The translations under genes and the position numbers were made by a program. Positions 3,144 through 28,376 of a stretch of 28,560 bases of DNA are shown here, piece after piece. Every line of letters starts with the position of its first letter. Positions within the stretch are counted from its first letter, which is position 1. Where the stretch lies: IMG/VR virus record IMGVR_UViG_3300032301_000739, positions 1 through 28,560 of that record; one strand, 5' to 3'. The notes under the pieces were generated by a model. That model worked only from the letters and a program-made list of their open reading frames with translations. It was not told the DNA's origin and searched no databases. This stretch comes from a virus. Its lineage: Duplodnaviria; Caudoviricetes.

Positions 3144-3872
3144 ATGATACATGGCCGCATATTTTTTGATCTAGAACAATTTATAGATCTCACAGAGTTT
3201 GATCGACAACACTTAGAAATTTCAAAAGGTATAGCTACCGCTAGACACCTAGCGTTTGATGGAATTCATGAAATTCCCGAAGGCACAATACATCCGCATG
3301 CGCAAGGAATTCAGGTAACTCCTTTATACGAAGTAGTCTCTATGTGGAAGTCGTTACCGGATGATGATCCTCGTAAAATTGCTGGCAAAGATCTAACGCA
3401 TAATCAATTAACTGATTATTTAAAAAATGCCTTTGGTGCATATGATTTCTATCGATTGTTTCCTATTATAGAAGAACATAACATCATAGGAGAAGTGTCT
3501 GAACATTTTCCCGAACTATTAAAATGGATACAAAGTTTTGTATCTAATGGAATCCTAGACAGTCTTTATAGTTCAAATTTAATTTCTGTAGATGCGGGCG
3601 GAATTCCTTGGGAACATTTAGATCCCAGACAACCGGGAGAGACTCCTGGTTACCTTCCAGAATTTATACATATTAAAACCGATTGCGATCGACCTTTTTA
3701 CATTCTTGATCCTGCAACAGGTCAGAAAACCTTTATGAATACAAGAGCAGCCTATTGGAATGAAGGTGATTGGCACGGCGGAATTCCTATTCAACGCCCG
3801 ACATACACCCTAAGAATAAACGGTAGATTTTCAAAAAAATTCAAAAAAATAATCGGAATGCCCGACGAATGA
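3144..3872 (+). CDS. Putative Fe(II)/2OG-type (cupin-fold) oxygenase, paralogue of 10971..11774
   Basis: GIPWEHLD...EFIHI...WNEGDWHGG...YTLRING gives an HxD...H triad plus a distal Arg. Start set at ATG 3144. Confidence 0.55.
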   Translation: MIHGRIFFDLEQFIDLTEFDRQHLEISKGIATARHLAFDGIHEIPEGTIHPHAQGIQVTPLYEVVSMWKSLPDDDPRKIAGKDLTHNQLTDYLKNAFGAYDFYRLFPIIEEHNIIGEVSEHFPELLKWIQSFVSNGILDSLYSSNLISVDAGGIPWEHLDPRQPGETPGYLPEFIHIKTDCDRPFYILDPATGQKTFMNTRAAYWNEGDWHGGIPIQRPTYTLRINGRFSKKFKKIIGMPDE

Positions 3873-4708
3873 GATACTCGTTGCATGAGAACGGGTGGAC
3901 TGTGTTTGCAGAAGTTGATTTAAAAACTTGTACGCAACAAGAAGTCAACGATCTTCAAAAATTTCTTTCTTCTAATACTTGCGTTGTTATTAAAAATCAA
4001 TCATTAACTATTGAAGAAGAATTAAGATTTTTAAAAATGTTTGATAATGCAAAATCACTATATCCTAAAGATGATCCTTTATTCAACGATTTTGCATTAG
4101 ATATTGAAAAAGATCCAGACGGGATAATTTTTAGAGTTACAAAAGAACTCCGAGATGGAAAAATTGGAATGGCTGATTGGGAAGAAGGATTTAACTGGCA
4201 TTGCGATACTCCAGAGGAATCGGATCGTAGTTCTATTCTTTACTTGTACGGAAAGAGAGGAACAGCGGGATCCAAAACTACTTGGAATAATAATGTAATG
4301 GCTTATGCTGATTTATCAGACGATATTAAAAATCAAATTAAAAACTTACATTCTATTTACGGAAACATTTCTGCTCCAAGTGCGCCCGATCATGTGGGAG
4401 TACAATACAACACTATTTGGACTCCGCCGCTTGTTCACAAAACTTTAACAGGAAAAACAGGAATATATTTTGCGCCCTTCCAGCTAGGTAAATTTGTAGA
4501 ACTTACTCAAGAAAAATCAGACGAAATAAAACAAATACTTTGCAATCATATATTAAATGAAAAATATCTGTATCACCATGATTGGGAGGATGGAGATGTT
4601 GTTATATCGGATCAATGGAATGGAATACATAAACGTTGGCCGTTCAATAAGATGGACATTAGAGTATTACATAGAGCAGGAATGGACTACACAGGAGTTA
4701 CTAAATGA
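3869..4708 (+). CDS. TauD/TfdA-family Fe(II)/2OG dioxygenase
   Basis: VVIKNQSLT, WHCD, G.KTTW.N, YHHDWEDGDVVISDQ..GIHKR, RVLHR. Confidence 0.85.
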   Translation: MRYSLHENGWTVFAEVDLKTCTQQEVNDLQKFLSSNTCVVIKNQSLTIEEELRFLKMFDNAKSLYPKDDPLFNDFALDIEKDPDGIIFRVTKELRDGKIGMADWEEGFNWHCDTPEESDRSSILYLYGKRGTAGSKTTWNNNVMAYADLSDDIKNQIKNLHSIYGNISAPSAPDHVGVQYNTIWTPPLVHKTLTGKTGIYFAPFQLGKFVELTQEKSDEIKQILCNHILNEKYLYHHDWEDGDVVISDQWNGIHKRWPFNKMDIRVLHRAGMDYTGVTK

Positions 4709-5568
4709 TACAGTACAAATTACACGATAACGGCTGGACTATTATTCTTGAGAACTTTAACATTAAAACTGCTACACAAGATGATATCAACGACATATCA
4801 AAATTATTAGCAACACATACTCTTGCAGTGATTAAAAAACAATCATTAACTATTGAAGACGAAGTTAGAATTGCTAAAATGTTTAAGAATCCGCAACAGT
4901 TTCATGTAGATGTGGAAGGTTCGTTTGATGCTGAATGCTATCGTGGAGCAGAAGTCGATGGCTCAGAAAAATATATTCTACGTGTTACTGGCGAAAAGAA
5001 TGAACACGGCTTACCTGGAATCGCAGGGTGGACCAATGAGATGGTATGGCACTGCAACGATCCTCACGATCCTTTAAAAAGATCATTGATTTATTTGTAT
5101 TCTGTAAAAGGGTCAGAAGGATCAAGAACTACTTGGAATAATAACATTCTGGCCTACGACGAACTAGACAAACAAAAAAGAGAACTATTAGAAAACCTTA
5201 AACTTGTCATGGCTAACTGGGCTGAAAATGATGCCGATGTTTTAGCAGGATACACAGGTGAAGCTCTTGACGGGTACACACCTAATTTAGTTATGCAAAA
5301 CATAGCAGGTAAAAAAGGATTTTATTTTCCATTCTTACAAATTTCTGGATTTGTAGGATTATCACAAAAAGAAAGTAAAGAGATTATTAGTTGGTTATCA
5401 GAGCATACCATACAAGACAAATACTGCTATCATCACGATTGGGATGATGGAGATATTGTTATAGCTGAGCAATGGTTGGGTATTCACAAGCGTTGGCCGT
5501 TTGAGGCCATAGAACACCGGCTTTTACATAGAATGGCGTTTGACTTCCCAGATCAAGATTATAATTAA
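4705..5568 (+). CDS. TauD/TfdA-family dioxygenase paralogue with HxN in place of HxD
   Basis: Collinear with the upstream gene: WHCND, GSRTTWNNN, YHHDWDDGDIVI..GIHKRWPF, RLLHR. Confidence 0.82.
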   Translation: MIQYKLHDNGWTIILENFNIKTATQDDINDISKLLATHTLAVIKKQSLTIEDEVRIAKMFKNPQQFHVDVEGSFDAECYRGAEVDGSEKYILRVTGEKNEHGLPGIAGWTNEMVWHCNDPHDPLKRSLIYLYSVKGSEGSRTTWNNNILAYDELDKQKRELLENLKLVMANWAENDADVLAGYTGEALDGYTPNLVMQNIAGKKGFYFPFLQISGFVGLSQKESKEIISWLSEHTIQDKYCYHHDWDDGDIVIAEQWLGIHKRWPFEAIEHRLLHRMAFDFPDQDYN

Positions 5569-6209
5569 GGCAGTTCGTCAATTACCTTATATTCGCCAGT
5601 GACGTTTTGTTTAACTGCTGCATCTTCAATCAATTGTTTCCAACCGTCTAGAGCATCATGTCTAGCAATAATCATATGCATACGATCTTCGTTGCTTTCA
5701 TTAATCACAGAATGATGGTAATGTAAATTCATAGCATAGACACCTCCTGGCTCCATGATTATTTCTTCGCCATCACCCCATATCCATTTGCAACCTACAG
5801 GGTTATTAAGAGCAACATTAATGTTCTCTATTAATTTTATACTAGAATCGCTATGTAATGCAATCTTGCCGCCTGCACGTAACAACATAAATCTAACACG
5901 ACCATACTTGTTGCAAGGAAATGTTTCTTTTAACCACTTGGTCGTCACAGGGCATGATTCAGCGATTTCGGTCCAGTGCATATCGTTACTGGCGTCTTTG
6001 CCTTTCTTATAGCCATAGGCATCATAGTTCTCGTGTTTGTCCCATCCGAGACCGTGTATGGTTAAACTTTCCCAACCATGTGAATCCTCGTCTCCTCTAT
6101 GAGGACTAAATTTATCGATCAATGCAAATGCTTCTGCACACATTTCGTGATAAGGCAATGATATATCTAATTTCAGATAGCGACCTTCTGAATGATAATA
6201 TTCTTTCAT
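5565..6209 (-). CDS. Aspartyl/asparaginyl beta-hydroxylase-like Fe(II)/2OG oxygenase
   Basis: CPVT..WL, RVRFMLLRAGGKIALHSD, INVALNNP, YHHSVINESNEDRMHMI. Confidence 0.78.
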   Translation of the reverse strand: MKEYYHSEGRYLKLDISLPYHEMCAEAFALIDKFSPHRGDEDSHGWESLTIHGLGWDKHENYDAYGYKKGKDASNDMHWTEIAESCPVTTKWLKETFPCNKYGRVRFMLLRAGGKIALHSDSSIKLIENINVALNNPVGCKWIWGDGEEIIMEPGGVYAMNLHYHHSVINESNEDRMHMIIARHDALDGWKQLIEDAAVKQNVTGEYKVIDELP

Positions 6210-7654
6210 CACTTAACTCCAAGAGGACGTTCACTGTCATGCTTCCAATCCTCTGCATGCCACTCAGGTGTTTTTAATTCTTTAATATCTGTATAAACAA
6301 AATTACCTGCAGTATCTACTCTTTTATTACTATTTGATTTCCAAAATCCATCAGCAGCTCTAGATGTTGTAATCAACATTATATTGGGATCTTTGTTTTT
6401 AAGTTTTTGCAACAAATTATTTTCGCAGCTTATGCGATATTTTAAACTAGAACTAGCGACAAACGGTGCATGGTTATATAAGTCACTTAAATTTAATAGA
6501 GTTTTTTTATCTTCATCCAACCAATTAAAATTAAAAGATGCAGTATAATCTATGAGTATGTAATTGTATTTTAAACTTTTTACCCGTGACCAATGAGAAT
6601 CCCAATCATCGAATGTTTCTAAAAATTTATTCCATTGCTCGGCTATTTGATCTTTGTAAGTATCTGGAATATAAGGAGGATTGTTAGGCAGCATTGGTTT
6701 ATGTTCCCAATAAAAATCTGCATAATTTTTTCCGTCCCAGTCGTCCACCATCTTCTTCATGAACATTAGACAATTATAGTTAATGTCTGTGAAGATAACT
6801 TTTGTGTCATTTGTAAACCCAACAATTTCTAAATTCTTGATCCAATTAAATCCAATACCTACTGTGGCATATTGTTCAACCGGACCATCAAACGGCAAGT
6901 CTGATTTCAGCCTGTCTGAATTCCAACCAGCAAAAAAATTATTACAGAAAAATTGATAGTATTTTATATCTTCCAATTGTCTTAAGAACACGTGATCATA
7001 CTCATAATACAAATATTTTTTACTGTCTCTTATTGCTCTACTTAAAGGTAATAATTTTTTATCGTGTTCCAACCCAACATTTAAAATATTCCAGCCGTGA
7101 AGTTTGACAGAATATGTTTTAAGTTCCGTACCTTTAGATATCCATACAGGAATTTCTGGATCCTCATGCAAATATTCTTTGCTTCGAAGAGGAGCAATTT
7201 GCTGATAATCTATCCATTCCTCGTTGCCTACATTAGGTAGATCTAGTTCTTTATATTGATCAAGATTGATAATATAAAATTGTCGATGCAATTCAAAACA
7301 GGCATTTTTCTTATAATAAGAATGATCACCTCTATCAAGTATATGCCCTGCTATAAAAAAATCTTCATTGCATTGCTCTTTAACAGCGTCAAATAATCTA
7401 TCAGATAATCCTAAACTGGTACCTGCTGAAATAACTATCGCATGTTTATAACCGTCATCGGCAACTGCTTTTAATAATTCATCTTCATCTTTGCTAATAA
7501 AAATATCATATCCGTGTAAGTCACATCTATTAATTAAAAAATCAGTTAGGTTGACACATATTTCTTTAGCATATCCACTCTTGCAATCGTCAGTGATATC
7601 TAAAATACAAAAAACTATTGATCGATTTTTCTCAGATCGAAATCTCATTACCAT
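6209..7654 (-). CDS. Hypothetical protein (~480 aa)
   Basis: Long ORF coupled to both neighbours; start at 7654 or 7648 (TAATG overlap). No motif recognised with confidence. Confidence 0.75.
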   Translation of the reverse strand: MVMRFRSEKNRSIVFCILDITDDCKSGYAKEICVNLTDFLINRCDLHGYDIFISKDEDELLKAVADDGYKHAIVISAGTSLGLSDRLFDAVKEQCNEDFFIAGHILDRGDHSYYKKNACFELHRQFYIINLDQYKELDLPNVGNEEWIDYQQIAPLRSKEYLHEDPEIPVWISKGTELKTYSVKLHGWNILNVGLEHDKKLLPLSRAIRDSKKYLYYEYDHVFLRQLEDIKYYQFFCNNFFAGWNSDRLKSDLPFDGPVEQYATVGIGFNWIKNLEIVGFTNDTKVIFTDINYNCLMFMKKMVDDWDGKNYADFYWEHKPMLPNNPPYIPDTYKDQIAEQWNKFLETFDDWDSHWSRVKSLKYNYILIDYTASFNFNWLDEDKKTLLNLSDLYNHAPFVASSSLKYRISCENNLLQKLKNKDPNIMLITTSRAADGFWKSNSNKRVDTAGNFVYTDIKELKTPEWHAEDWKHDSERPLGVK

Positions 7655-8184
7655 TTTACCTTCTCCAGTTGATCTATAAAAATGTTTACGTTTACCTTCC
7701 AAAATGTTTGTAGGTGGCCTCGATATTCTTTTTCAAAAGCTCTAGTTAATACTCCTGTCTTTTCTAGACTAGGGCCCCATACACTGTGTACCAATCTTTG
7801 TGTTCCTACTTCACTAGGATGACTGGTGATATACATATCCCCTTTAGTGCCTACCCACTCTATGCAGGTCGGCATTAGATATTGTGCTGTAACATGCTGA
7901 TGTGTTAAAATCTGATTACGTGTTCGTAGCGTGTTTAAAGGTAACAGATCTGATAACACACAGGTTCTAGCACAAATTCGATAACCTTCTTCTATGCTGT
8001 GTGCGCCTACGCAGCCTACGGCCAAATGGTTGTAGTAAAGAATCCAAACGCACCACTCACGTTCATTCCGAAAACAATCAATCATTGCTTTCTGATTAGC
8101 ATTATTTGCAAAACCCCTACGGTCTGCTTCAGCATAGAAGTCAGATAAATCTAAATCTTCTGTCCACGGAACTATTTTATACAT
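7648..8184 (-). CDS. Possible GNAT-fold acyltransferase
   Basis: 178 aa; WILYYNHLAVGCVGAH..YRICARTCV resembles GNAT strands beta2-beta4; no clear acetyl-CoA loop. Confidence 0.4.
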   Translation of the reverse strand: MYKIVPWTEDLDLSDFYAEADRRGFANNANQKAMIDCFRNEREWCVWILYYNHLAVGCVGAHSIEEGYRICARTCVLSDLLPLNTLRTRNQILTHQHVTAQYLMPTCIEWVGTKGDMYITSHPSEVGTQRLVHSVWGPSLEKTGVLTRAFEKEYRGHLQTFWKVNVNIFIDQLEKVKW

Positions 8185-8864
8185 TGTACACGCTCAATAA
8201 ATTCTTTAGGATAGTTTGTGCTAAAACTAGCCCAACATAATTCATCCATAACTTTCCACGGTTGAGGTTTATCCCATTCAATGCCTAGTCTTTCTAGATG
8301 CTTACGCATTTCGTCTTGGCGTGTTGTGTAGATATGACTTTCAACTTCTGCAATACTGATAGTTGGTTCAGTCGCACGATAGGTAAAAAAATAGTTGATA
8401 CTTTTTAATTTTCCATCAACTACAAAGTAACTGCTAGGATGCATACTGTATTTGTGCAATCCCATATTTTTGTGCGCTTGAATAATATTCAGCATTTGAT
8501 CCTGCCAATCAGGTAGGACCTTATTAAAGTTCTCAGTTAGACAACCTGCCTGTTCCCAAAAGTCCGGACCTTCAATTTCCAAATATATTTTTTTACGTTC
8601 TAAATCTATCTCGAGAATTTTAGGAACCAAGTCAGGGTATTTGTTACGCATCTGTGTTAGGTAGTTTACTTCACGTAACCATTTTTCTTCCATTTTGTCA
8701 GGAGACACAACTTGGTTCTTACCTTTGTGATATTCTGTATCATTATGATACCATTGAACAAATACAGAGCTGTCTTCGGACATAAGACTTGTGTATATTA
8801 AATTATTTCGGCAAGGACCATTGCCAGGTACATTGTTGTAATAGTAATTAAATTTTCCATCCAT
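8172..8864 (-). CDS. Protein-kinase-like fold protein with degenerate catalytic motifs
   Basis: WLREVNYL...VPKILEID..KKIYLE (alphaC to hinge). HKNMGLHKYSMHPSS lies at the HxDxxxxN position and KSINYF at the DFG position. Start chosen at 8864 (MDGKF). Confidence 0.55.
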   Translation of the reverse strand: MDGKFNYYYNNVPGNGPCRNNLIYTSLMSEDSSVFVQWYHNDTEYHKGKNQVVSPDKMEEKWLREVNYLTQMRNKYPDLVPKILEIDLERKKIYLEIEGPDFWEQAGCLTENFNKVLPDWQDQMLNIIQAHKNMGLHKYSMHPSSYFVVDGKLKSINYFFTYRATEPTISIAEVESHIYTTRQDEMRKHLERLGIEWDKPQPWKVMDELCWASFSTNYPKEFIERVQCIK

Positions 8865-8868
8865 ACAG

Positions 8869-8883
8869 TAATTATCATAAATA
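8869..8883. promoter_or_regulatory. Back-to-back late-like promoter boxes of a divergent junction
   Basis: CATAAATA (+, 8876-8883) is 6 nt before ATG 8890; the variant GATAATTA (-, 8869-8876) is 4 nt before ATG 8864. Confidence 0.5.
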
Positions 8884-8889
8884 TTTGCC

Positions 8890-9930
8890 ATGAACAAAAT
8901 AAGTGATACTATTTCTCTGTGTGAGAATTGTTACAGACATGTACCTGCTGTAAAGTTTGAAAGAGACAATTCAATTTGGTTAGGTAAAACTTGCCCGAAA
9001 CACGGATACCACGAAGAAATGGTAGATATCAATTCTACGTTTTATATCAATCAACAATACGAAAAGCGCAGGCCAAGTTCATATTGGTTAGATATCACCA
9101 ATCGTTGCAACCTAGACTGCCCGCATTGTTATCAAATGCCCGACAACACCAGCAAAGATCCAAGCATCGATTACTTGTTAGCTGAAGTTCAGTCGTGGCC
9201 AGATAATGGATATCCTGTGAGCCTAGTTGGTGCTGAACCTACTGTGAGAAAAGACCTTGCTGATTTGGTGCTGGCTATACAGGCATTGCCCGGCAAGACC
9301 AGAAATGTTATAATAGTTACTAACGGTGTATACTTGGCCAAATGGGATTACGTAGAACGCTTTAAGGGAATACCTAGACTTAAATGGACATTCGGGCTTA
9401 ACCATCCTGAGTACAACGGCGGACAAATTCGAGACAAGCAGATGATTGGTTTAGAAAATTGCCTTAAGCTAGGACTAGATGTAAAGACATTGACTTATAC
9501 CTTGGCTGATTTAGAACAGTTGGCTGATGTAATGCACGAAGTACAGAAGTTTAAAATCAATGCTAGAATTCAAGTGGGTGTTGAAATTGGTCGAGTACCG
9601 GAAGGCGATTTCAAAGAATTATACTTGTCCGAACTAGTGGCTGTTGCCGAGCAGTTTTGCAAAGACAACAACTGGACATGGGAACCTGATTATATCAGTG
9701 GCAATCGTACACATTTTGCTGTTCGTATCAACGGCATCGAACATAAGTTTATCAAATGGTGTGATGTGAGAACCATAGATTTAGAAGAAGTACAGAGCGA
9801 GTCCTGGGCTAGCATTGTTCCCGGTAAACCCATGAGTCCACTATTGCATCAAGTTATTTTAAGAGATCAAGCAGTCAACCGAGGACAGATGTTGTTGGAT
9901 ACAGTACCTGAAAAATATAGACATGAATAA
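8890..9930 (+). CDS. Radical SAM protein with an N-terminal CxxC...CxxH metal-binding domain (MJ0619/Tes-like architecture)
   Basis: TISLCENC...KTCPKHG; DITNRCNLDCPHC; GAEPTVR; IVTNG. Confidence 0.85.
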   Translation: MNKISDTISLCENCYRHVPAVKFERDNSIWLGKTCPKHGYHEEMVDINSTFYINQQYEKRRPSSYWLDITNRCNLDCPHCYQMPDNTSKDPSIDYLLAEVQSWPDNGYPVSLVGAEPTVRKDLADLVLAIQALPGKTRNVIIVTNGVYLAKWDYVERFKGIPRLKWTFGLNHPEYNGGQIRDKQMIGLENCLKLGLDVKTLTYTLADLEQLADVMHEVQKFKINARIQVGVEIGRVPEGDFKELYLSELVAVAEQFCKDNNWTWEPDYISGNRTHFAVRINGIEHKFIKWCDVRTIDLEEVQSESWASIVPGKPMSPLLHQVILRDQAVNRGQMLLDTVPEKYRHE

Positions 9931-10987
9931 AATACACGATACAACATCAGTATGTGAACACTGCTACAGGCATGTGCCTGCTGTGCTTTTTGAACGAGAT
10001 AGCTCTATATGGCTGAGTAAAAAATGTAAGTGGCATGGTGAAAGTGAATATCTAGTAGAACCCAATGCTGATTTTTACATCAATTACAAATATGATAGAC
10101 CAACAAACAAAACATATTGTCTAGATATTACCAACCGATGTAATTTAAACTGTCCCCATTGCTACCAAATTCCAGATAACATGAGCAAGGATCCTAGTAT
10201 AGAAGAAATACTTGATATTATCAATGCCTGGGAAGATGATGGATACGCCATTGCTTTGATGGGTGCTGAACCCACAACAAGAAAAGACTTGCCAGAATTA
10301 TGCAGAGCCATACAAGCATTGCCAGGCAAGGCTCGTTCTATAATGATTTTAACCAACGGTGTGTATCTTTCTGATATCGAATATACCGAACAATTTGCAG
10401 ACATGACCAATGTATTTTGGACCATAGGTTTAAACCACCCGGATTACCAAGGACACACAGTTAGAAAGAAACAAATGGAAGGCATTGCAAATTGCATGGC
10501 ATTAGGAATGCCAATTAAAAATATCAGCTATACCCTTGAAACTATCAACCAGTTGGAGTATTGCTTAGAAGAAATACAAGAATTTGGAAAAACTCTTAGT
10601 CCACATAACTACAGAATTCGTGTAGGCACAGACATTGGCCGTCATCCTGGAGAGGAAAAAGTATACCTGTCAGAACTGGTAGATATGGTAATGGCTATTT
10701 GTGATAAAAAAGGATGGGAGTACAAGTATGAACCATCTTACGGAATTAGAGTACATTATCCGTTACGTATTAATGGTATATTAGTCAAGATAATTCAATG
10801 GCCTGATGTTCGTACACTTGACCTAGAAGAGGATCAAACAGAATCATGGGCAGACATCATACCAGGTAAACCAGTGTCACCGTTAGTACATCAAGTTATA
10901 TTACGAGACGGGGCCGTAAATAAAAACTTGCCGTTATACGATACGGTACCAGAAAAATATCAAAGGAAATATGATGCACGGGATTAA
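9923..10987 (+). CDS. Radical SAM protein, tandem paralogue of 8890..9930
   Basis: TTSVCEHC...KKCKWHG; DITNRCNLNCPHC; GAEPTTR; ILTNG; shared C-terminal ESWA..PGKP.SPL.HQVILRD. Confidence 0.85.
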   Translation: MNKIHDTTSVCEHCYRHVPAVLFERDSSIWLSKKCKWHGESEYLVEPNADFYINYKYDRPTNKTYCLDITNRCNLNCPHCYQIPDNMSKDPSIEEILDIINAWEDDGYAIALMGAEPTTRKDLPELCRAIQALPGKARSIMILTNGVYLSDIEYTEQFADMTNVFWTIGLNHPDYQGHTVRKKQMEGIANCMALGMPIKNISYTLETINQLEYCLEEIQEFGKTLSPHNYRIRVGTDIGRHPGEEKVYLSELVDMVMAICDKKGWEYKYEPSYGIRVHYPLRINGILVKIIQWPDVRTLDLEEDQTESWADIIPGKPVSPLVHQVILRDGAVNKNLPLYDTVPEKYQRKYDARD

Positions 10988-11774
10988 TAATCGACCCTAC
11001 TTTGATATGACTCCATATCTGGATATGAATCAGTTTGATAAACTACAACCTGAGATATTAACAGGCTTCGCACTAGCACGTGAGTATGCTAAAGAAGGCA
11101 CATGGATGAAGCCAGGATTTACTTTTAACAACATGAGCTATAAACTGTCATGGAAACCTATCTATCAGTCCATGGATGAGTTTATGGAGTTGCCTAAAGA
11201 TGATCCTATATATCAAGCCGGCATAAAATTAATGCCAACAGATTTTAAAAACTTTCAACAACGCAACAAGTTTACACGCTTCCTAAAAATGGCAATGGGT
11301 GCATACGATCCATACATTTACTATTACTTGTGGGAAGAAGGTTCGTGGGATGATAGAACAGCACCACGCAAACTAACGCCAGAAGCAGAATACTTTCCTA
11401 ATGTAGTTAAATGGGTTGAAAGCCTAGTAGGTACAGTGTTTGAAGACATTGGTCGTGTTATATTCTTTCATTGTGAAGCAGACGGCATTCCGTTTGAACA
11501 TAGAGACTTAGATGCACGTAACGGTGTCGATGTAGTTAAACCACATCGCAACGAATTTATACACATCCGTCCTAATACAAAGAAGGCTATGTATCTATGG
11601 GATCCAGAAACTAAAGATAAGACATACTTAAACTGTCGTGCTGCATGGTGGAATGATGTAGACTGGCACGGTGGTGAACGTATTATGGAACAAAGTTACA
11701 GTTTGCGTATTGATGGCAAGTTTACAGAAGCGTTCCGTAAACAATTAGGCATAGATCATCTGGACACATACTAA
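10971..11774 (+). CDS. Putative Fe(II)/2OG-type oxygenase, paralogue of 3144..3872
   Basis: GIPFEHRD...EFIHI...WWNDVDWHGG...YSLRIDG. Confidence 0.55.
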   Translation: MMHGINNRPYFDMTPYLDMNQFDKLQPEILTGFALAREYAKEGTWMKPGFTFNNMSYKLSWKPIYQSMDEFMELPKDDPIYQAGIKLMPTDFKNFQQRNKFTRFLKMAMGAYDPYIYYYLWEEGSWDDRTAPRKLTPEAEYFPNVVKWVESLVGTVFEDIGRVIFFHCEADGIPFEHRDLDARNGVDVVKPHRNEFIHIRPNTKKAMYLWDPETKDKTYLNCRAAWWNDVDWHGGERIMEQSYSLRIDGKFTEAFRKQLGIDHLDTY

Positions 11775-12298: not shown

Positions 12299-12307
12299 GA
12301 TTAGAAA

Positions 12308-12832: not shown

Positions 12833-12833
12833 A

Positions 12834-17024: not shown

Positions 17025-17028
17025 GAAA

Positions 17029-17058
17029 TATTTATGTGCTACTATTATGGTGTAAATA
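17029..17058. promoter_or_regulatory. Divergent pair of late-like TAAATA boxes
   Basis: CATAAATA (-, 17029-17036) is 4 nt before ATG 17024; TGTAAATA (+, 17051-17058) is 4 nt before ATG 17063; the whole intergenic gap is 38 bp. Confidence 0.65.
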
Positions 17059-17062
17059 AAAC

Positions 17063-19776: not shown

Positions 19777-20575
19777 GATTGTATTAACAAATAACATAGA
19801 AGATACAGAGCTAATTTTTAAGGTGAGAGAAACATCCATTGCAAAAAAATGGTTCGCTGAACTTTGTAAAAATTATTCTATATATGAGAATGATAGATTT
19901 AGCAATTGGGGTGCAAACTATGAATTGATAAATGACATTAATAAACAAATTGATATAATTAATCAATATCAATATATTGTAGATCAAAAAGTATCTGTTA
20001 CAACTACACAAGATCAACTCAATTATCTACACAAATTTTTCGAAGATCTTAGAGGTGATATTGTAATAGGAACTACATGGTTTCATAATGCTCCTGTAGA
20101 AGTACAGATAGCATTAGAAAAATTTAACATAAGAATTCATCAACTGGAAGAACAGTTGAGGTCTCCTAATTATCCTACACTTGTAGTAACGTTCAAAGAC
20201 CACAATAGATGCCTTCTTACAGATGAAGATGTAAAGCATTTTACTTTTAATTGGAAAAAAGGAACGGTATACATAAATTATTGCCATGTAGGAAAACCTG
20301 TTTTAGATGTATTCAAAGACCATGACACTATCACGCAGGGTGTGGTACCACAAACACATTACAGTGCAGACTTCATGATAAAATTTGGACCGTCAACAAA
20401 TTATCTAATTTTTGTTCTAAGAAAAATAATAATCAATATATGGTTGAAATTTCAAAAGTTCAAATTTAAGAATCCAAATATAGGCTATATTCCAGTCGCT
20501 GATATCATCGGCAATTTTGATATAGAAAATTATAGAAAATTTAATAGAGTAAAAAAAATCGAATGTATAAAGTAA
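19769..20575 (+). CDS. Hypothetical protein (~268 aa)
   Basis: ORF coupled to both neighbours; start at 19769 (MFKIVLT). Contains LNYLHKFFE, N.RIHQLE and YCHVGK segments of unknown function. Confidence 0.7.
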   Translation: MFKIVLTNNIEDTELIFKVRETSIAKKWFAELCKNYSIYENDRFSNWGANYELINDINKQIDIINQYQYIVDQKVSVTTTQDQLNYLHKFFEDLRGDIVIGTTWFHNAPVEVQIALEKFNIRIHQLEEQLRSPNYPTLVVTFKDHNRCLLTDEDVKHFTFNWKKGTVYINYCHVGKPVLDVFKDHDTITQGVVPQTHYSADFMIKFGPSTNYLIFVLRKIIINIWLKFQKFKFKNPNIGYIPVADIIGNFDIENYRKFNRVKKIECIK

Positions 20576-21456
20576 CTAGTGCATGGCCGCATCAAGATCA
20601 AATTAAGATAGAATGGAACCTTGGCAAACGGTGTAACTACGACTGTACATATTGCCCAGCAAGCATACATGATAACTTTAGTCCTCATACAGACATCGAT
20701 ATATTAGAACGCACAGTGGATAAGTTGTGTGAACTAGGTAAGCCGTTGCGTATCAGTTTAACTGGAGGAGAGCCTTGTGTGCATCCAGACATAGAGGATC
20801 TATTAGAGTATTTTAAACGTAAAAATATATTCTGGGTCAACCTAACAACTAATGGAACTAGGGGGTATCGATGGTATTTGCAGCACGAAATGTTTTTTAA
20901 TCATCTTGTTTTCAGTTTGCATTTTGAACAAGACTGGACAAGAATATTCGATACCATTATGAAATTCTACGACGAGACTGATCGAGACTTTTTTGTTAAT
21001 GTAATGGCACATCACAATTACATGCACAACGTAAAAGTTGTTGTTAAAAAGTTTGATGAACTGGGAATTAAGTATGCCATTCGTAGAATTCGGTGGACTG
21101 AAGGCGACCATAACGTATTCGACGATTTAAAATACGATGGCAAGGATCTGGAATGGATTTTAAAACACGATGCTACAGTTAAACCAAATTGCCGTATTGA
21201 TGACAGTGAAGTCATGCATAGCAACGATGTAATTAAACTTCACAAAAATCAATTTAAAGACTGGACTTGCAATGCAGGCATTGAAAGTTTAATGATCAAC
21301 TGGGACGGTGAAGTACATAGGGCAACGTGTAGAGTGGGCGGAAGTCTTGGTAATATCTACACAGGAACATTTACTGCCCCCAATGCTCCGATTTCGTGTA
21401 CTAGAGACTGGTGCACCTGTGCAGCAGATATTCCGTTAACCAAGTTTAAACTTTGA
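20563..21456 (+). CDS. Radical SAM protein with a C-terminal SPASM/twitch-like domain
   Basis: RCNYDCTYC; LTGGEP; LTTNG; WTCNAG...RATC...LGNI...CTRDWCTC. Confidence 0.88.
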   Translation: MYKVTSAWPHQDQIKIEWNLGKRCNYDCTYCPASIHDNFSPHTDIDILERTVDKLCELGKPLRISLTGGEPCVHPDIEDLLEYFKRKNIFWVNLTTNGTRGYRWYLQHEMFFNHLVFSLHFEQDWTRIFDTIMKFYDETDRDFFVNVMAHHNYMHNVKVVVKKFDELGIKYAIRRIRWTEGDHNVFDDLKYDGKDLEWILKHDATVKPNCRIDDSEVMHSNDVIKLHKNQFKDWTCNAGIESLMINWDGEVHRATCRVGGSLGNIYTGTFTAPNAPISCTRDWCTCAADIPLTKFKL

Positions 21457-22473
21457 TTGTTGTGTTTCGCATGCGCACAAGCAACTCTTAATAGAACATA
21501 TAGATGGTTTAAATTCAGGATCAAATTTTTCTATAAAGTCGTTGTCTAAGATATTGAAAGAATAGTCAAGCCCATAAACCTTTTGTTGACACGATCCTTG
21601 TATTGCCCCAGTCCATTCTATAAACACATTATCTAAACCTATGTCACAACTCCATCCTTCAAATGCTGTCCAGTTTTCGTTAATGTATGTGTTAGATTTG
21701 GATTTCATAGTTTTACCGTTATCGAAATACGCAACACTTTCGTGAAGACGTATTTCGCCAGTGAATATTAATTTTCTATTTTTCCAAAACCATAATAGAC
21801 TAGGTATTCGTTTCAACGAGTTTTTTAAGAATCCTTTTTGATCTTTTGTTAATTGTATATCGTTAGCATCTATGACTTTTATGCCTTTGATGTTTGCAAC
21901 AGCTGGTTCGATAACTTCGCAAGTTGTTATGAACCAAGGATGCTTGCTGTGTTTTTTCATGTAGGCAATTACATCAATGCCTTTTTGCCAATGTTTCCGA
22001 TCCATCAAAACTTTCACAGTAACTTTCTTACCATACTCAAATAACGTATCTGCTACCGCAATCATGTGATCTGGGTCAGCTTCCGCTATGTGATAAGATA
22101 GTCCAGCATTATCTATTAGATGACCGTATTCTTTCCACCATCTAAGTGTTCTTGAACCATTACTAATTATCGTAAAGTAGATATCATTTTCTTTTTTAAC
22201 TGCTTCAATAAATCGTCCCAGGTCTTTCCATAGAGTCGGTTCGCCGCCTGCTATACTGAGATGTATTTTTGTTTTGCCCAATTTGGTTCTATATTGCACA
22301 ATCATGTGATTGAAGTTCTTGATTATGAGATCCAAGTCTTGCGGGGAACGATAATCACCGGCATTGCTACCGGGCCAACAGTATTCGCATCTATAGTTAC
22401 AAACATTGTTGGGATTCCACCTTATGGCTAAAATATTAGATTTCTGGGTTGATACAATTTTTATAATTTTCAT
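21436..22473 (-). CDS. Radical SAM protein with a C-terminal SPASM/twitch-like domain
   Basis: VCNYRCEYC; IAGGEPT; ISNGSR; WSCDIG...GSC...CSIKSCLC. Confidence 0.88.
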   Translation of the reverse strand: MKIIKIVSTQKSNILAIRWNPNNVCNYRCEYCWPGSNAGDYRSPQDLDLIIKNFNHMIVQYRTKLGKTKIHLSIAGGEPTLWKDLGRFIEAVKKENDIYFTIISNGSRTLRWWKEYGHLIDNAGLSYHIAEADPDHMIAVADTLFEYGKKVTVKVLMDRKHWQKGIDVIAYMKKHSKHPWFITTCEVIEPAVANIKGIKVIDANDIQLTKDQKGFLKNSLKRIPSLLWFWKNRKLIFTGEIRLHESVAYFDNGKTMKSKSNTYINENWTAFEGWSCDIGLDNVFIEWTGAIQGSCQQKVYGLDYSFNILDNDFIEKFDPEFKPSICSIKSCLCACETQQSKFKLG

Positions 22474-23888
22474 AGTAAATGCGCTAGTTCGGGGAACGTC
22501 TCTTTAAAATCTGTGCCACGTTGTTTATCCATTGTAATAATATAATCTTTAAAGTCTGGTAATAAATTGGTGTGATCTTCTTTATCCATCCAGTCTAGTA
22601 TGCCTTCCCAACGTTTCCAGCCATATGGGTTGACTTCCCAAAATTCTGTATCTTGTGTGTAGTTATCCCACAACCATTGCTGTAGTTCGGCAAACAAATC
22701 ACGTACAGCTAATTTATCTTCTTTGGGTAGTACACGCAGACTCAACCAAGTTGGAATCCATAGCAAGTGTACACCTACTAGACCGCCACCCATTACATGA
22801 CCTGCTGCATTTAGATCAAAGTTTATCTTGTTAAACTTCATACGTACCTTCCACTTGATGAAATCCGGAACATGTTTGATGTTTAGTATCTGTACAGCCA
22901 TAGCGATGTTGGTCTGTATATTGTCTGGTGCATTGTCTAACTTAACTAAATTACTTTCCACTTCTTTCCAATCTAATGGATGGCGTATATATTCTCCACG
23001 CGGACCTATGCCGTCTAGGCTAACACCGACTTTGACTTTGCGAAACTGGCTCCAGATCTCTATAATCTCGTCATTGACAAGGATGCCGTTGGTATTGTAG
23101 CGTAGACTGATCTGCCCGGCATATCCTCGAGCAATGATTTCTAATAAGAATACCTTATGCTCTTTGATCAATAATGGCTCACCGCCTGCGAAGTACAACT
23201 GTTTGATATTAGGTATCTGATCATAAATTTCTTCCCAAAACGCAGGATTTTCATGCCACTTGTTATTAAAGTCTGAACCTTGCCAACTCATTTGTTTTTT
23301 AATCAACTGGCTAGTGAATATAGGAAATACTTTTTTATGATCAGGAACCCACATGCTACTATCATGCGGACTACACATAATACATTTTAAATTACATGTA
23401 TGACCTAATCTTAAATCTAGGTATTGCAGTTTATAAGGAACTGAGCCGTCTAGTTCTGTTTCAGTTATTAGCTCTTTGATATCGATCTTTTCATTCAGAT
23501 GCCAAGTCCCGGTTTCCCAAATACGTTTACTAGCAATGCCTTCTGCTTCTTCTTCAAAGCACTTAGTACAGCTAGCAGGAACTGCTCCTTCTAACATAGT
23601 CTTTCGCACCGACTTCATATAGTCATTGTTGAATGCACTGGTGGGAAGATCGTTGGCAAAGTTTGCTGGTTCCCCATCTTCTTTTTTAACCAGTCCCACT
23701 GTGTAGTCTCCGGAGTCTGCGCCGCTGGCATTAGCCACACAACATATACGCATATCCCCGTTAGGACGGGTTGCCAAGTGTATCCAAGGCAGTACACAAA
23801 AACTAGGACTGCCGGTCAAGTCTTTGATTTGTTTCTGCCAATCACCCAGTTGAGTGTTTTCTGGGTGTAGCCAAAATACTTTATTCAT
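22470..23888 (-). CDS. Radical SAM protein with an N-terminal twitch/SPASM-like Cys domain
   Basis: FCVLPW...NG..RICC...SCTKC precedes TCNLKCIMC; FAGGEP; YNTNG; VSLDG. Start set at 23888. Confidence 0.88.
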   Translation of the reverse strand: MNKVFWLHPENTQLGDWQKQIKDLTGSPSFCVLPWIHLATRPNGDMRICCVANASGADSGDYTVGLVKKEDGEPANFANDLPTSAFNNDYMKSVRKTMLEGAVPASCTKCFEEEAEGIASKRIWETGTWHLNEKIDIKELITETELDGSVPYKLQYLDLRLGHTCNLKCIMCSPHDSSMWVPDHKKVFPIFTSQLIKKQMSWQGSDFNNKWHENPAFWEEIYDQIPNIKQLYFAGGEPLLIKEHKVFLLEIIARGYAGQISLRYNTNGILVNDEIIEIWSQFRKVKVGVSLDGIGPRGEYIRHPLDWKEVESNLVKLDNAPDNIQTNIAMAVQILNIKHVPDFIKWKVRMKFNKINFDLNAAGHVMGGGLVGVHLLWIPTWLSLRVLPKEDKLAVRDLFAELQQWLWDNYTQDTEFWEVNPYGWKRWEGILDWMDKEDHTNLLPDFKDYIITMDKQRGTDFKETFPELAHLL

Positions 23889-24966
23889 TGATTGATATCT
23901 CAGTTTCTTGCTCATGCACACCTAGGAAAGGACTATGTGGACCGCACATTATGATGCAGGTTGAACTGGATCTGTCCTTCCATTTTTGTTGCCACATGGT
24001 TTGCCATTGCTCAGATTCGATGATGTTTTTAAATCCAGATTCTAGTACGTTTAATCTTGGAAACTCTAGTACTTGCTGACGCACTCGTTCTCCTTCCTCA
24101 ACAACTGAATCTTCTTCATATAGATTGTATTTTTTCAATAATTCAACATCGTAATTTGTATATAAAAATGCTCCGATCATACAGCAGGGGCTTAATTGAT
24201 AATGTGCATCGATGAATAAATCTTTATCTGCAATTGCTACACAATTAATTTCATCTGCTTTTGGCCATTGTTGGTGCCCCTGAATATCCGACTTGCTAAC
24301 AAATTTAATCACGCTGTCAGATGGTTGTTCGAGATTATACAGGAACTGCCCTTGATTATCAACTACAGGAAACGGCCTGCCGTGACGTCTACTAGTTTTC
24401 ATAGTAAATTGTCTAAATCCCAATTGCTTAGATAAAACTTCTGCGTCAGCAACTTGATGTTCGTTGTGTTTGAATCTGATAAAATGCCATTCAGTAGTTC
24501 CGCCGGCATCGATAAATGTTTTAGCATTTCTTAAAATTAAATTATAACTAGTGCCTACTCGATAAAGATGATGCGTATCTTCCAGCCCATCTATGGCAAA
24601 TATCACATTATGATCGTCTGGCAATGCAGATCTTAATGCTTTCCACCAAGCAGTGGATCTTAAACTACCGTTGGTGTGTATGTCTATTTTAATTGACGGT
24701 GCATTAACTTTAACGTATTCACACATTTTGATAAGATCGTTGTTTAATAAAGGATCGCCAAAGTTGCCACAAAAGTTAATAATTTTAAGCTGTGCTAGTA
24801 CATCTACAGTAAATATTTTTATAAAATCTTCCAAGGACCAATCATTGATAGGTAACAGAGGATTTTCTAGGCCGCCGTGAATATTTCGGGGACACATAGG
24901 GCAACTTGCTTGACATCGATTAGTGATTTCTAGATGAACACTTTTAAGTTCGTTAAAATTAAACAT
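23881..24966 (-). CDS. Radical SAM protein with a C-terminal twitch-like domain
   Basis: HLEITNRCQASCPMC; CGNFGDP; HTNGS; FAIDG; INC...SPCC...CIIMCG. Confidence 0.88.
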   Translation of the reverse strand: MFNFNELKSVHLEITNRCQASCPMCPRNIHGGLENPLLPINDWSLEDFIKIFTVDVLAQLKIINFCGNFGDPLLNNDLIKMCEYVKVNAPSIKIDIHTNGSLRSTAWWKALRSALPDDHNVIFAIDGLEDTHHLYRVGTSYNLILRNAKTFIDAGGTTEWHFIRFKHNEHQVADAEVLSKQLGFRQFTMKTSRRHGRPFPVVDNQGQFLYNLEQPSDSVIKFVSKSDIQGHQQWPKADEINCVAIADKDLFIDAHYQLSPCCMIGAFLYTNYDVELLKKYNLYEEDSVVEEGERVRQQVLEFPRLNVLESGFKNIIESEQWQTMWQQKWKDRSSSTCIIMCGPHSPFLGVHEQETEISINE

Positions 24967-25564
24967 TTGATTTTCCTATGATCATCCAGCGTGTGTATAA
25001 AGGTAATTCTAATTCGCCAGACCACATGACATCTATATGGCTCTGTTCTTTAAATTCATCTAGACTGTTAGCTGTACGTACATGCTCTGGTATATCATAA
25101 TTATTACTTTGAAGAACCAGCAATTGATCTCTAGTGCGTTTGTCCAACCATGTAGCATATTGTTCTTGGGTGATATGTTCGCAACTAGTATTAATTACAA
25201 TGTCCACAAAGGATATTAAATTACACATGTCTCCAGTGCCTGCTTGGAATCTGCCTTGTATCTCTTCGCCCTTGTTCATCATAGTGGCAATTGGTTCACA
25301 TGCAGGATCGATGTCGAGGCTATAAATTCGTTTGATAGGTATGTCGCTTTGAAACAACATGCTGGCTAACACACCGACCCATCCGCCGTGTATTTCAATA
25401 CTTGCTGGGCCTTCCTTACCTGAAAATTGTGTACTCAGTGCGTTGATAAGCCATTCTTTACTTTTGAGCTGACCCTGCCAGAAAGCATCCATAGTCCGCA
25501 TAGGATCTGGACTCTGTCGAATGGCTTGCATCCAATAGTGTAGATGTTCTGTATCAATTTTCAA
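24959..25564 (-). CDS. Class I SAM-dependent methyltransferase-like protein
   Basis: IHGGWVGVLA (motif I variant), SLDIDP, GDM, VINTSCEH. Likely TTG start at 25564 after GGGAG. Confidence 0.7.
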   Translation of the reverse strand: MKIDTEHLHYWMQAIRQSPDPMRTMDAFWQGQLKSKEWLINALSTQFSGKEGPASIEIHGGWVGVLASMLFQSDIPIKRIYSLDIDPACEPIATMMNKGEEIQGRFQAGTGDMCNLISFVDIVINTSCEHITQEQYATWLDKRTRDQLLVLQSNNYDIPEHVRTANSLDEFKEQSHIDVMWSGELELPLYTRWMIIGKSNV

Positions 25565-26540
25565 ATTGTTCTCCCAGCTTGTCAAACTTACCGCATTGTT
25601 TAGAACATTCTTTAATTCCACATGTACTCCAACTGCTTTCTATTTGATCAAAATAACCGCTGTTAAAAATTTCATTTAATGTTTGCTTGTGTAGATTAGG
25701 CCAATGTCCTATCGTATCTAAGTATTGTATTCGAGAGTCTTGCGTAGGAGGCATTGGTTGTAAATCTAACCAGCAACAAGGAGTTATTGTGCCTTCCGCT
25801 GAGACATATATCTGATTGTCTTTCTTTGCTTTGCAATGAATAGATGGCAGTATGTCTTGCTCGGCAGTTAAAACTTTGCTGATCATATTATTGCTTTTAG
25901 ATGTAGGATATAATATATATTGAGTTTTTCCTAGTTCATCTAGTACATGAAGCTTGCCATCTTTAAAACGACTTGTGTGTTTGACATAGAAATCGTTGAA
26001 TCCCAATTCTTGGCTTAACTCACGGCATTGATCTATCTGATGTTCGTTGTGTTGGAAAGCTAACATATCCCAACGTGCATCACCGCCTGCATTAATAAAT
26101 GCTGTTGCATTGTTGATAATTTTTTTCCAATCAGTATCTATCCTATATAGATGATGAGTATCTTCCAATCCGTCGATGCCAAATACAATTCTTACTTGTA
26201 GCCCTGCCAGTGCTTCAAACCATTCAGTTGTTCGTGCGCTACCATTGGTATGCATGACCAAAGTCATGTCTGCATTATTAGTTCGTAAATGTTTAAAAAT
26301 TTCTAGTGTGTCTTTGGCAATAATAGGATCTCCAAGATTTCCACACATGCTTAGATGGTTTAATTGTTTTATAAAATTCGCAGGAAACCAATCTTTAAAT
26401 TGTTCTAAGGTTATTTCTGTTAAATCAAAAAACGGATTTAAAAGACCACCATTGATGCGTCTAGGGCACATAGGACACCTAGCCTGGCACTTAGATGTTA
26501 TTTCAAGATGTATGGCTCGTATCTGATCTAATTTATACAT
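25554..26540 (-). CDS. Radical SAM protein, paralogue of 23881..24966
   Basis: HLEITSKCQARCPMC; CGNLGDP; HTNGS; FGIDG; IHC...TPCC...CSKQCG. Confidence 0.88.
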   Translation of the reverse strand: MYKLDQIRAIHLEITSKCQARCPMCPRRINGGLLNPFFDLTEITLEQFKDWFPANFIKQLNHLSMCGNLGDPIIAKDTLEIFKHLRTNNADMTLVMHTNGSARTTEWFEALAGLQVRIVFGIDGLEDTHHLYRIDTDWKKIINNATAFINAGGDARWDMLAFQHNEHQIDQCRELSQELGFNDFYVKHTSRFKDGKLHVLDELGKTQYILYPTSKSNNMISKVLTAEQDILPSIHCKAKKDNQIYVSAEGTITPCCWLDLQPMPPTQDSRIQYLDTIGHWPNLHKQTLNEIFNSGYFDQIESSWSTCGIKECSKQCGKFDKLGEQFEN

Positions 26541-26547
26541 GTCAATA

Positions 26548-27333
26548 TTATATTTTTGTTTTTAATTCATTGTAAATCATTTCTGCAATATTTCTATTTG
26601 TATTAGGACCCGGATGTCCTCTCTCGTTAGGTCCCAGTATGTCTCTAGCATTGTCTATATAGATACATTGTTTACAGTCTAATAATTCTGATGTAGCATA
26701 ATCATAAGCAACTTCGTGTATCACTGTTCGGTCTTTCCACACCTGTTGAAAAATTTTCTGGGCCATCACTGCATTTGCAATGGTATTGTATTCTTTTTTC
26801 GACCACAAGTCCATGTAGCTGTCTTTCTCAGAATTCCACGGCCCATAATGATACAGTTCATATTTGTCATAGTACACGCATCTTGAATGATGCGGCCAAG
26901 CCATTATTACTGCTCGAGGGGTGGGATAGCCGGCTGATAAAATCACAGAATTATGTAAATTATAATTGATAGATGATCCGCCTTGTCCTAGATTTATAAC
27001 CGGTATCTGCATGATGTTTTCTAGCTGCTGACTCAATGTATGAGCATCATCGACGCCTACACCGTACACATAAGAACATCCTAATATGACTATCGATTCT
27101 GCCCAATCTATCTTGTTAAATTCTTTGGTTCTATATCCTTTAGAATTATTAGTGTATGTGACTGAATGATTCCTATAATACCAATCTTCCGGTTGTATTT
27201 TTAAATTTTTTTCATACAGTTCTTTAGTATCTGTACCAGACCAATGCTTTGAATGTGGGGAATTATCTCCAGGTAAAAAATTATTTTTCTTTAAATGTTT
27301 GTCCATTCTGCAGTGAAAAAAATTATCTAACAT
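26548..27333 (-). CDS. SGNH/GDSL hydrolase-fold protein
   Basis: NSKGYRT, ILGCSYVYGVG, NLGQGGSS, ARD...GHPG; related to 12834..13655. Confidence 0.65.
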   Translation of the reverse strand: MLDNFFHCRMDKHLKKNNFLPGDNSPHSKHWSGTDTKELYEKNLKIQPEDWYYRNHSVTYTNNSKGYRTKEFNKIDWAESIVILGCSYVYGVGVDDAHTLSQQLENIMQIPVINLGQGGSSINYNLHNSVILSAGYPTPRAVIMAWPHHSRCVYYDKYELYHYGPWNSEKDSYMDLWSKKEYNTIANAVMAQKIFQQVWKDRTVIHEVAYDYATSELLDCKQCIYIDNARDILGPNERGHPGPNTNRNIAEMIYNELKTKI

Positions 27334-28319
27334 GAATTGGATCTGTCCTTGGGTATTTTGCTATCAGCCGAACTCACACAGCTAGGTGTAATACAGATTC
27401 TTGGATTAGAAATAAGATCGAATCCATCTGTCAGAGTTCCTAACGGTGCATCGTGACAACTATACGATCTCTTGACCTCATTGCCTCTTATTATAACACT
27501 TTGATATCCGCTATTGCAAGTCCAACCTTGGAATTTATTAAAATTAAAAGCATTGAATCTTTCCGCTTGATCAAACAGATATTCTTGGCCTGTTTGATCA
27601 TATAGTGCAATTTGATATACTTCCTCGCCGTGTGCTGTTTGAGGAAATCCAGTTTGTAATAGATTAATCATTTCTGCAGTATACCCATCGACTACTCGAC
27701 TCGCAGTGGGATCGCTCTGTGGTTTGAGGGTGACATTGATTCCTCGAGCATGCAATCGAGCCATGCGTTCATACAGCTCATAGAACTTTTCAGGTACCAT
27801 TACTTGGTTAACGGTGACATGGACCAACTCATACTGTAACTGTAGACACTTGTCTCCAAACTCTTGCTCCTTGGCAAACTCATCATGAAATGATGCTGTG
27901 ATACTACGGCGTTGTAATAAAGCAGTATTAGCACACCATGTGTTCCACCATTTTGATCCTGGCGACAAATTGGTAGTCATGTGTATGCTCTGGTATGTGC
28001 TTTCTGTTTCGTCTAAGTGTTTTACCAAATCCGGCAATTGCTTGTATGCAGTGGGCTCGCCGCCGCTGAAGCTCCAATGGAATTCAGTAAATCCATTTTG
28101 TCGAGCCTGCCGTTTGATTTCGTCTATGGCGTTGGTGTAGACTTCAAATGATTGATAATCCATTCGGTCACTGCGAGCATACGGCCAACAGTAGGAACAG
28201 TTATAATTACAGAAACGGCCTAAAATCCAACTGGTAGAAAATAATGGACGCTGTAACATGGTGCGTTGACCAAATCTTACTATGCGATCGAATGGTATCT
28301 TTGTGAAGTCTTGTGTCAT
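27327..28319 (-). CDS. Radical SAM protein with a C-terminal SPASM/twitch-like domain
   Basis: RFCNYNCSYC; FSGGEPT; MTTN; WTCNSG...RSYSC...LG...CITPSC. Confidence 0.88.
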   Translation of the reverse strand: MTQDFTKIPFDRIVRFGQRTMLQRPLFSTSWILGRFCNYNCSYCWPYARSDRMDYQSFEVYTNAIDEIKRQARQNGFTEFHWSFSGGEPTAYKQLPDLVKHLDETESTYQSIHMTTNLSPGSKWWNTWCANTALLQRRSITASFHDEFAKEQEFGDKCLQLQYELVHVTVNQVMVPEKFYELYERMARLHARGINVTLKPQSDPTASRVVDGYTAEMINLLQTGFPQTAHGEEVYQIALYDQTGQEYLFDQAERFNAFNFNKFQGWTCNSGYQSVIIRGNEVKRSYSCHDAPLGTLTDGFDLISNPRICITPSCVSSADSKIPKDRSNSC

Positions 28320-28329
28320 AATCTGACAG

Positions 28330-28337
28330 TATTTAAC
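28330..28337 (-). promoter_or_regulatory. Late-like box GTTAAATA heading the last minus-strand unit
   Basis: TAAATA core 10 nt upstream of ATG 28319. Confidence 0.5.
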
Positions 28338-28347
28338 TACAAAATGC

Positions 28348-28376
28348 TTGACCTTTTGCGTTTGCGGTTATATACT
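28348..28376 (+). promoter_or_regulatory. Sigma70-type promoter of the tRNA-like gene
   Basis: TTGACC (28348-28353), 17-nt spacer, TATACT (28371-28376); the predicted start site coincides with the RNA 5' end. Confidence 0.8.

Follow-up and report, generated by a model that had tools for sequence, protein, structure and literature searches.

The window analysed here is the whole 28,560-nucleotide stretch of a 28.6-kb virus record (IMGVR_UViG_3300032301_000739), which carries genes for translation initiation factor IF-1, a phosphoesterase and an Mtd_N fibre-like protein next to a large island of putative tailoring enzymes. The island comprises 29 open reading frames (ORFs; g01 to g29, from left to right) that tile positions 3144-28319 with inter-ORF gaps of at most 38 nt, which confirmed the tight packing described in an earlier note on this DNA. 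The GC content is 37% in the island and 43% in the left flank.

Ten of the 29 ORFs contain a CX3CX2C motif, and all ten products scored above the Pfam gathering cut-off for radical S-adenosylmethionine (SAM) enzymes (PF04055), the number given in the note. Two of them, g20 (18529..19776, + strand) and g24 (22470..23915, - strand), have an N-terminal twitch domain and belong to NF033640 (N_Twi_rSAM), with 330.7 and 390 bits, respectively, against a cut-off of 170; among the best five NCBIfam matches listed for each protein, none of the other eight exceeded an equivalog cut-off. These eight are g08 (8890..9930, +), which has an N-terminal zinc ribbon and is Tes/TrsS-like at scores far under the cut-off; its paralog g09 (9923..10987, +; 56%); g16 (14818..16362, -; PF04055 46.8 bits), with a weak match to the B12-binding domain PF02310 (16.7 bits against a cut-off of 32.1); g22 (20563..21456, +); g23 (21436..22473, -); g25 (23881..24966, -) and g27 (25554..26540, -), which form one family and of which g27 has a C-terminal SPASM/twitch domain by Pfam; and g29 (27327..28319, -), the first gene at the right boundary. 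Two assignments were ruled out by score: the tetraether synthase Tes (NF045702, cut-off 450 bits, full length) for g08 (70.7 bits) and g09 (78.8 bits), and viperin (NF038283, cut-off 180 bits) for g22 (45.7 bits), g23 (54.6 bits) and g29 (35.9 bits).

Nine further proteins are oxygenase-like and keep their Fe-binding motifs, and the iron/2-oxoglutarate (Fe/2OG) class proposed for them earlier was supported by Pfam, by conserved triads and by matches in the Atlas and the PDB. The TauD-family proteins g02 (3869..4708, +) and g03 (4705..5568, +) exceeded the cut-off of PF02668 with 80 and 82 bits, as did g04 (5565..6209, -) that of the AspH family (PF05118, 46.6 bits), while g17 (16359..17024, -) scored slightly under the AspH cut-off. 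The paralogous AspH-like cupins g01 (3144..3872, +) and g10 (10971..11774, +) share an H-x-D...H motif that is near-invariant across 41 sequences, and g10 matched AspH clusters in the Atlas with a score of 0.96. In the small cupins g11 (11774..12298, +), its paralog g12 (12308..12832, +; 65%) and g14 (13630..14133, -), the residues H103-D105...H155 are kept in 52 of 52 aligned sequences, and a PDB beta-hydroxylase was matched with an E value of 0.0014.

The remaining genes are more diverse. The paralogs g07 (8172..8891, -) and g15 (14126..14821, -) matched atypical protein-kinase-like folds in profile comparisons with the PDB (E 5e-4; Bud32-type E 0.011), in line with the two kinase-fold proteins anticipated, and the expected methyltransferase was recovered as g26 (24959..25531, -), whose predicted structure has a class I SAM-dependent fold (Foldseek E ~3e-9). 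The three proteins described as SGNH, g13 (12834..13655, +; G-C-S motif), g19 (17901..18542, +) and g28 (26548..27333, -), do form a single family by iterated hidden Markov model (HMM) searches, although their Pfam support is one GDSL match on g19 under the cut-off (PF13472, E 1.8e-4). Similarly, g18 (17063..17908, +) is a likely pyridoxal phosphate (PLP) fold-type I enzyme from its D-x-A...S-x-S-K motif, with a weak match to threonine aldolase in the PDB (E 0.55). The GNAT-like assignment of g06 (7648..8184, -), a conserved protein of 21 of the 33 islands described below, was not confirmed by family or PDB searches, neither of which returned a match. PDB sequence searches also gave no useful match for g26, g10, a QueC-like accessory protein of related islands, and g21 (19769..20575, +), which has conserved His/Glu residues and occurs in 5 of 33 islands. 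As the note had stated, Pfam and NCBIfam scans of the 29 island proteins yielded no match to nonribosomal peptide or polyketide synthases, transporters, proteases or regulators, and this holds for exporters and scaffold synthases as well. The highest 19-residue hydropathy among the 29 proteins was 1.69, with no clear membrane segment. A ribosomally synthesised and post-translationally modified peptide (RiPP) cluster was ruled out, as there is no precursor gene (and no intergenic room for one) and no match to RRE/PqqD, a protease or an exporter; the RiPP-toolkit framing of the note is thus unsupported.

The note had further stated that the island lacks a scaffold enzyme or glycosyltransferase, which proved wrong at the level of the fold. 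The AlphaFold2 (AF2) model of g05 (6209..7654, -; mean pLDDT 88) consists of two domains, residues 11-230 and 232-451. The first matched GT-A and nucleotidyltransferase folds, the best being 2p6w, the domain of the chlorovirus capsid glycosyltransferase A64R (Z 9.9, root-mean-square deviation 3.9, 170 aligned residues, 6% identity), followed by STIV A197 (Z 9.6); the second matched small-molecule methyltransferases (Z 8.3). In Foldseek human LH3 ranked first, and NNMT was among the matches. The modelled protein is therefore a predicted GT-A domain fused to a class I methyltransferase domain. In 21 of its 26 copies, g05 lies no more than two positions from the AspH-like g04 gene. An Atlas cluster of longer proteins with PF05118 matched g05 with a score of 0.84, which we treat as a lead only. 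Similar fusions act in known viruses: A064R of PBCV-1 joins a glycosyltransferase to a methyltransferase for the capsid glycan, and L230 of mimivirus joins a glycosyltransferase to a hydroxylase, according to the available text of PMC9614988.

To the left of the island lie an IF-1 gene cut by the contig end (2-133, +; TIGR00008 above cut-off), a phosphatase-like gene with an HCxxGxxRS motif (144-704, +) and a metallophosphoesterase gene (1178-1768, +), the latter two being conserved neighbours of the site. The left boundary itself is formed by fib (1912..3093, +), a fibre/adhesin-like gene with an Mtd_N domain (PF18454, E 1e-9). The contig is viral, as the note had assumed. Its relative G001 (270 kb, 76% complete), whose g24 is 80% identical to that of the window, encodes a major capsid protein, terminase, portal, sheath, gp55 and PolB, so that a cellular origin was rejected; the window itself does not encode gp55. 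The capsid protein of G001 is 67-72% identical to those of Rak2/GAP32/Paride-like jumbo myophages and, judged by such relatives, the contig belongs to the Rak2/GAP32-like group. A scan of prokaryotic genomes with g24 returned only two short contigs of metagenome-assembled genomes.

Conserved clustering was evident across related contigs, and the homologues are not scattered. We compared 33 islands, from the window and 32 related contigs, some of them truncated. Because contigs were collected by way of g24 or fib and retained on a match to g29, the presence of g29 and g24 in 33 of 33 islands is partly by construction. The g25/27 family was found in all 33, g26 in 32, g20, g22 and g17 in 31 each, g01/g10 in 30, g07 in 25, g18 in 25 (by HMM) and g23 in 24. 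The islands hold 7-44 genes, including 5-11 CX3CX2C proteins each. A core of about nine enzymes (g29, g26, g25/27, g24, g22, g20, g17, g10 and g07, often with g18) thereby emerges, and it is very widespread, the g26 family alone comprising at least 7077 protein sequence clusters. The island occupies a fixed slot between fib/phosphoesterase and a region with a tRNA-like RNA and ThyX. The core is dispensable, being absent from G038 (345 kb, 94% complete; two radical SAM matches), whose slot holds desaturases, oxygenases, a Rieske protein and DctP instead; G051 has different content again, and at five loci the slot is empty. The content of the slot is thus a conserved, swappable enzyme module in which accessory genes turn over. 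Alternative contents (L334:2966-15944; L439:3558 to L440:4104) include DctP or TctC solute-binding proteins, Rieske oxygenases, desaturases, ATP-grasp proteins and DUF3050. A Bax-inhibitor-1 family membrane protein is encoded near the slot in G001 (L083:14119-14790) and some relatives.

Two features point to T4-type late transcription: operon heads bear a TATAAATA-like motif, and G001 encodes a gp55 homolog. The TAAATA element, which we take from the T4 consensus to be a gp55 late promoter, was scored within 90 nt upstream of genes, and it precedes 150 of 212 operon-head genes, whereas 44 of 642 internal genes have it, as do 2% of background windows; these counts are not independent because the islands are related. 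In the window, five of six operon heads have the element, at 3133 (g01), 8878 (g08) and 17053 (g18) and, on the minus strand, at 17029-17034 (g17) and 28330-28335 (g29), the exception being g07; fib has one at 1874. In G001 it stands before 7 of 13 structural genes checked, whereas of 13 genes for replication or early functions QueD alone has it. This placement indicates that the island is likely expressed late, through gp55-type transcription.

Several links join the island to fibres and glycans. A fib-like gene accompanies it in 25 of the 32 relatives examined. In G001, G039, G040, G045 and G046, but not in G038, one to five extra N-twitch paralogs end the tail-fibre operon. These N-twitch radical SAM genes, together with SGNH genes, follow a conserved six-gene late cassette placed after the tail-fibre genes (L087:10415-15858, -; L347:53-12607; L445-L449), which gave no informative Pfam, PHROG or NCBIfam match. 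A separate, variable late glycosyltransferase and nucleotide-sugar locus lies between UvsY and UvsW in G001, G039, G043, G044 and G050 (L094:2-10154; L450, L451, L452, L341), and in G001 five of its operon heads have TAAATA. This locus is present in the core-bearing G001 and G039 and absent at that junction from the core-less G038, although both sites fall within a single contig in only 3 of 18 long contigs, so that the agreement is suggestive only. In cultured phages, which gave no match for g05 or g10, the radical SAM module of CP220 adjoins two GT-A genes and the island of Mosig (MT647606) lies between tail-fibre genes and VrlC; the neighbours of further analogues in Vibrio K566 and RsoM2USA are unannotated. 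Across 26 related fib sequences, N-x-S/T sequons are raised (267 observed, 175 expected). Controls were raised as well (reversed motif, 231 and 177; island enzymes, 1922 and 1686), and we did not use this observation as support.

Taken together, these data led us to propose a late, soluble pathway in which an unusual sugar- or amino-acid-derived substituent would be built and then joined to surface proteins of the virion or to their glycans, a proposal to which we give about an even chance. After gp55-type late transcription from TAAATA, the core would rework a cytoplasmic precursor through radical, oxidative, PLP-dependent and methylation steps; since the core is conserved, a single conserved precursor is suggested, and the turnover of accessory enzymes would diversify the product among phages. 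The g04 protein might hydroxylate the acceptor, and g05, or the separate late glycosyltransferase locus of the genome, might attach and methylate the unit. Such decoration would change host recognition or particle stability. Action on an existing macromolecule, as suggested in the note, would be compatible with both the late promoters and the fibre linkage.

A number of observations weigh against virion decoration. The Z score of g05 is just modestly over that of nucleotidyltransferases (9.2), which share the GT-A fold. The DxD expected after the fourth strand is absent (S76-A77-G78, the site being placed by secondary structure and not by superposition), and the equivalent position is S, T or G in most of 23 g05 sequences. 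Moreover, g05 is present in 25 of 33 islands and not in all, and adjacency to fib may merely reflect a shared variable slot. The median identity of the core enzymes is 67-79%, compared with 39% for fib relatives (n = 25; 292-659 amino acids), which makes the fibre's own sequence an unlikely substrate of the core.

The accessory genes bear on the same question. Pfam annotation of 100 accessory representatives revealed desaturases, class III aminotransferases, AMP-binding and halogenase-like proteins, QueC-like proteins, AdoMet decarboxylase, methyltransferases and further oxygenases and radical SAM proteins. Others have a sugar link (a UDP-sugar dehydrogenase, an epimerase and a sulfotransferase); no Pfam glycosyltransferase was present among the 100, again to the disadvantage of our proposal. 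A UDP-sugar dehydrogenase encoded at L447:17292-19421 has a weak intein-domain match (E 3e-4). The halogenase-like, desaturase, AMP-binding, Rieske, ATP-grasp and solute-binding (DctP/TctC) accessories resemble small-molecule metabolism and, together with the class III aminotransferase, AdoMet decarboxylase, short-chain dehydrogenase/reductase (SDR) and the strong conservation of the core, they would suit a free small molecule made late in infection, such as a signal, a defence inhibitor, an antimicrobial or a lysis aid. A product of this kind is also one option put forward for a cyanophage cluster in the available text of Iyer 2021 (PMC7824862). However, no exporter or scaffold synthase was matched among the island proteins, and a free product would leave the recurrent linkage to fibre operons and the GT-A fold of g05 unaccounted for, so that we regard it as unlikely.

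Hypermodification of DNA or RNA bases after replication is another use to which such enzymes could be put. Sets of kinase-fold, PLP, radical SAM, GNAT and methyltransferase proteins resemble thymidine-hypermodification pathways, and a PP-loop QueC/TilS-like gene occurs in 22 of 33 islands. G001 also encodes FolE, a phosphoribosyltransferase (PRTase), a QueE-like protein and QueD (L086:19094 to L087:5491; L084:5672), with homologues in G038 and G039; these possibly constitute a 7-deazaguanine pathway separate from the island. Nevertheless, FolE, QueD and QueE homologues persist in the core-less G038, the island of the window has no QueC-like gene, its promoters are of the late and not the replication type, and ThyX is kept. 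We therefore consider base modification distinctly unlikely. No base-activating or transglycosylase enzyme was named among the proteins scanned, including those of the 76% complete G001.

Alteration of host lipopolysaccharide (LPS) or capsule to block superinfection would draw on some of the same evidence as virion decoration. The AspH family includes the lipid A hydroxylase LpxO, and the sole cellular match, on a plasmid, sits in a surface-polysaccharide locus with GT2, GT4, epimerase and ABC-exporter genes. A change of the host surface is also the interpretation published for the pelagimyophage (PMC7029224) and cyanophage (PMC7824862) clusters, as far as the available text of those papers extends. 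Against this, late expression leaves scant time for surface remodelling, and the 29 proteins include no flippase or polymerase and, as noted above, no clear membrane segment, which makes this explanation decidedly improbable.

The right boundary of the slot is marked by a tRNA-like RNA without an anticodon loop (28383-28491, +), identified by pattern and alignment and preceded by a sigma70-like promoter (28348..28376, +) with hexamers 17 nt apart. ARAGORN and Rfam (E up to 1) reported nothing in the window, this RNA included, and judged by title none of the papers retrieved deals with it. Our pattern fixed the T-loop, D-loop and CCA, but not the pairing, and it returned 71 copies (35 distinct) of 96-119 nt; about 310 IMG/VR stretches match the motif. 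All seven acceptor and five T-stem pairs are present in 31 of 31 aligned RNAs, with compensatory changes, as are the A73 discriminator and an encoded CCA. The canonical seven-base anticodon loop is replaced by a hairpin of variable length in a central region of 40-63 nt, and there is a long variable arm. Such an RNA could act as a decoy or as a non-ribosomal aminoacyl donor. It might even serve as a scaffold, being aminoacylated so that the radical SAM/oxygenase core rebuilds the amino acid on the RNA before transfer to a target such as the virion surface. The strict conservation of the acceptor stem, A73, CCA and T arm would suit this role, as would the possible GNAT g06 and the position of g29 as upstream-divergent direct neighbour in 64 of 80 RNA-selected loci (80 examined of 120 returned). 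On the other hand, the RNA has a sigma70-type promoter and stays with the downstream early genes, it lacks an adjacent g29 in 16 of the 80 loci and persists in the core-less G038 and G051, and the pattern was not found beside g29 in G005, G012, G018 and G033. We consider a scaffold very improbable; as core-less loci carry the RNA too, it probably serves as a landmark and is not part of the pathway.

If the island does decorate virions, a function would be at hand for the enzyme islands next to fibre genes that have been known from T4-like phages since 2010, whose genes are usually interpreted in terms of host LPS or metabolism, and the island would offer new radical chemistry. In the searches made, none of the ten radical SAM enzymes had a known reaction, nor was a member of NF033640, to which g20 and g24 belong, found with one. 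The question can be put to the test in culture, since analogous modules exist in the cultured phages Mosig and CP220. Literature searches, covering texts other than subscription journals and supplements, revealed no paper on this island or its core; PMC12619734 does not mention radical SAM, and PMC9004378 is not relevant to the island. The claim of the note that no characterised system matches the island holds in the literature searched, but uncharacterised islands of a similar general kind are in print. In their available text, Timms 2010, Nishimura 2017, Zaragoza-Solas 2020 and Iyer 2021 report tailoring islands, or islands rich in radical SAM genes, from T4-like phages, none with a demonstrated function; in Nishimura 2017 a single T4-like genome has 12 radical SAM genes.

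Comparison with these systems, again from the available text of each source, shows both kinship and differences. The closest are the pelagimyophage host recognition cluster (Zaragoza-Solas 2020, PMC7029224) and Mosig, in which, as here, a variable island by the fibre genes holds radical SAM cassettes, AspH/TauD oxygenases, a desaturase, an aminotransferase and methyltransferases. The pelagimyophage cluster lies between VrlC and gp14, whereas the present island occupies another slot in another phage lineage, and it differs in its core of about nine enzymes, its 5-11 radical SAM genes per island, its detectable late promoters and the absence of a Pfam-recognisable glycosyltransferase from inside the island. 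The second sugar/amino-acid modification cluster of jumbo cyanophages (PMC7824862) likewise combines a halogenase, 2OG-Fe/cupin hydroxylases and methyltransferases with no megasynthase, but it consists of 8-12 genes built on carbamoyltransferases, and the term radical SAM does not occur in the main text of that paper. The genomes of the Campylobacter phages CP220 and CPt10 (Timms 2010, PMC2853527) contain 11-12 radical SAM genes each, together with weak homologues of g25 and g29 (20-25%) and an interchangeable five-gene module, which is much smaller and has an amidinotransferase and two GT-A genes where the island has nine oxygenases. PBCV-1 A064R and mimivirus L230 (PMC9614988) join a GT-A domain to a methyltransferase or hydroxylase that acts on virion proteins, an arrangement comparable to that predicted for g05; they belong to eukaryotic viruses, and the likeness of g05, which is 6% identical and has no DxD, is by predicted fold. 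We conclude that the island is real, viral and conserved, and that among the known islands of unexplained role it is an unusually large, new variant.

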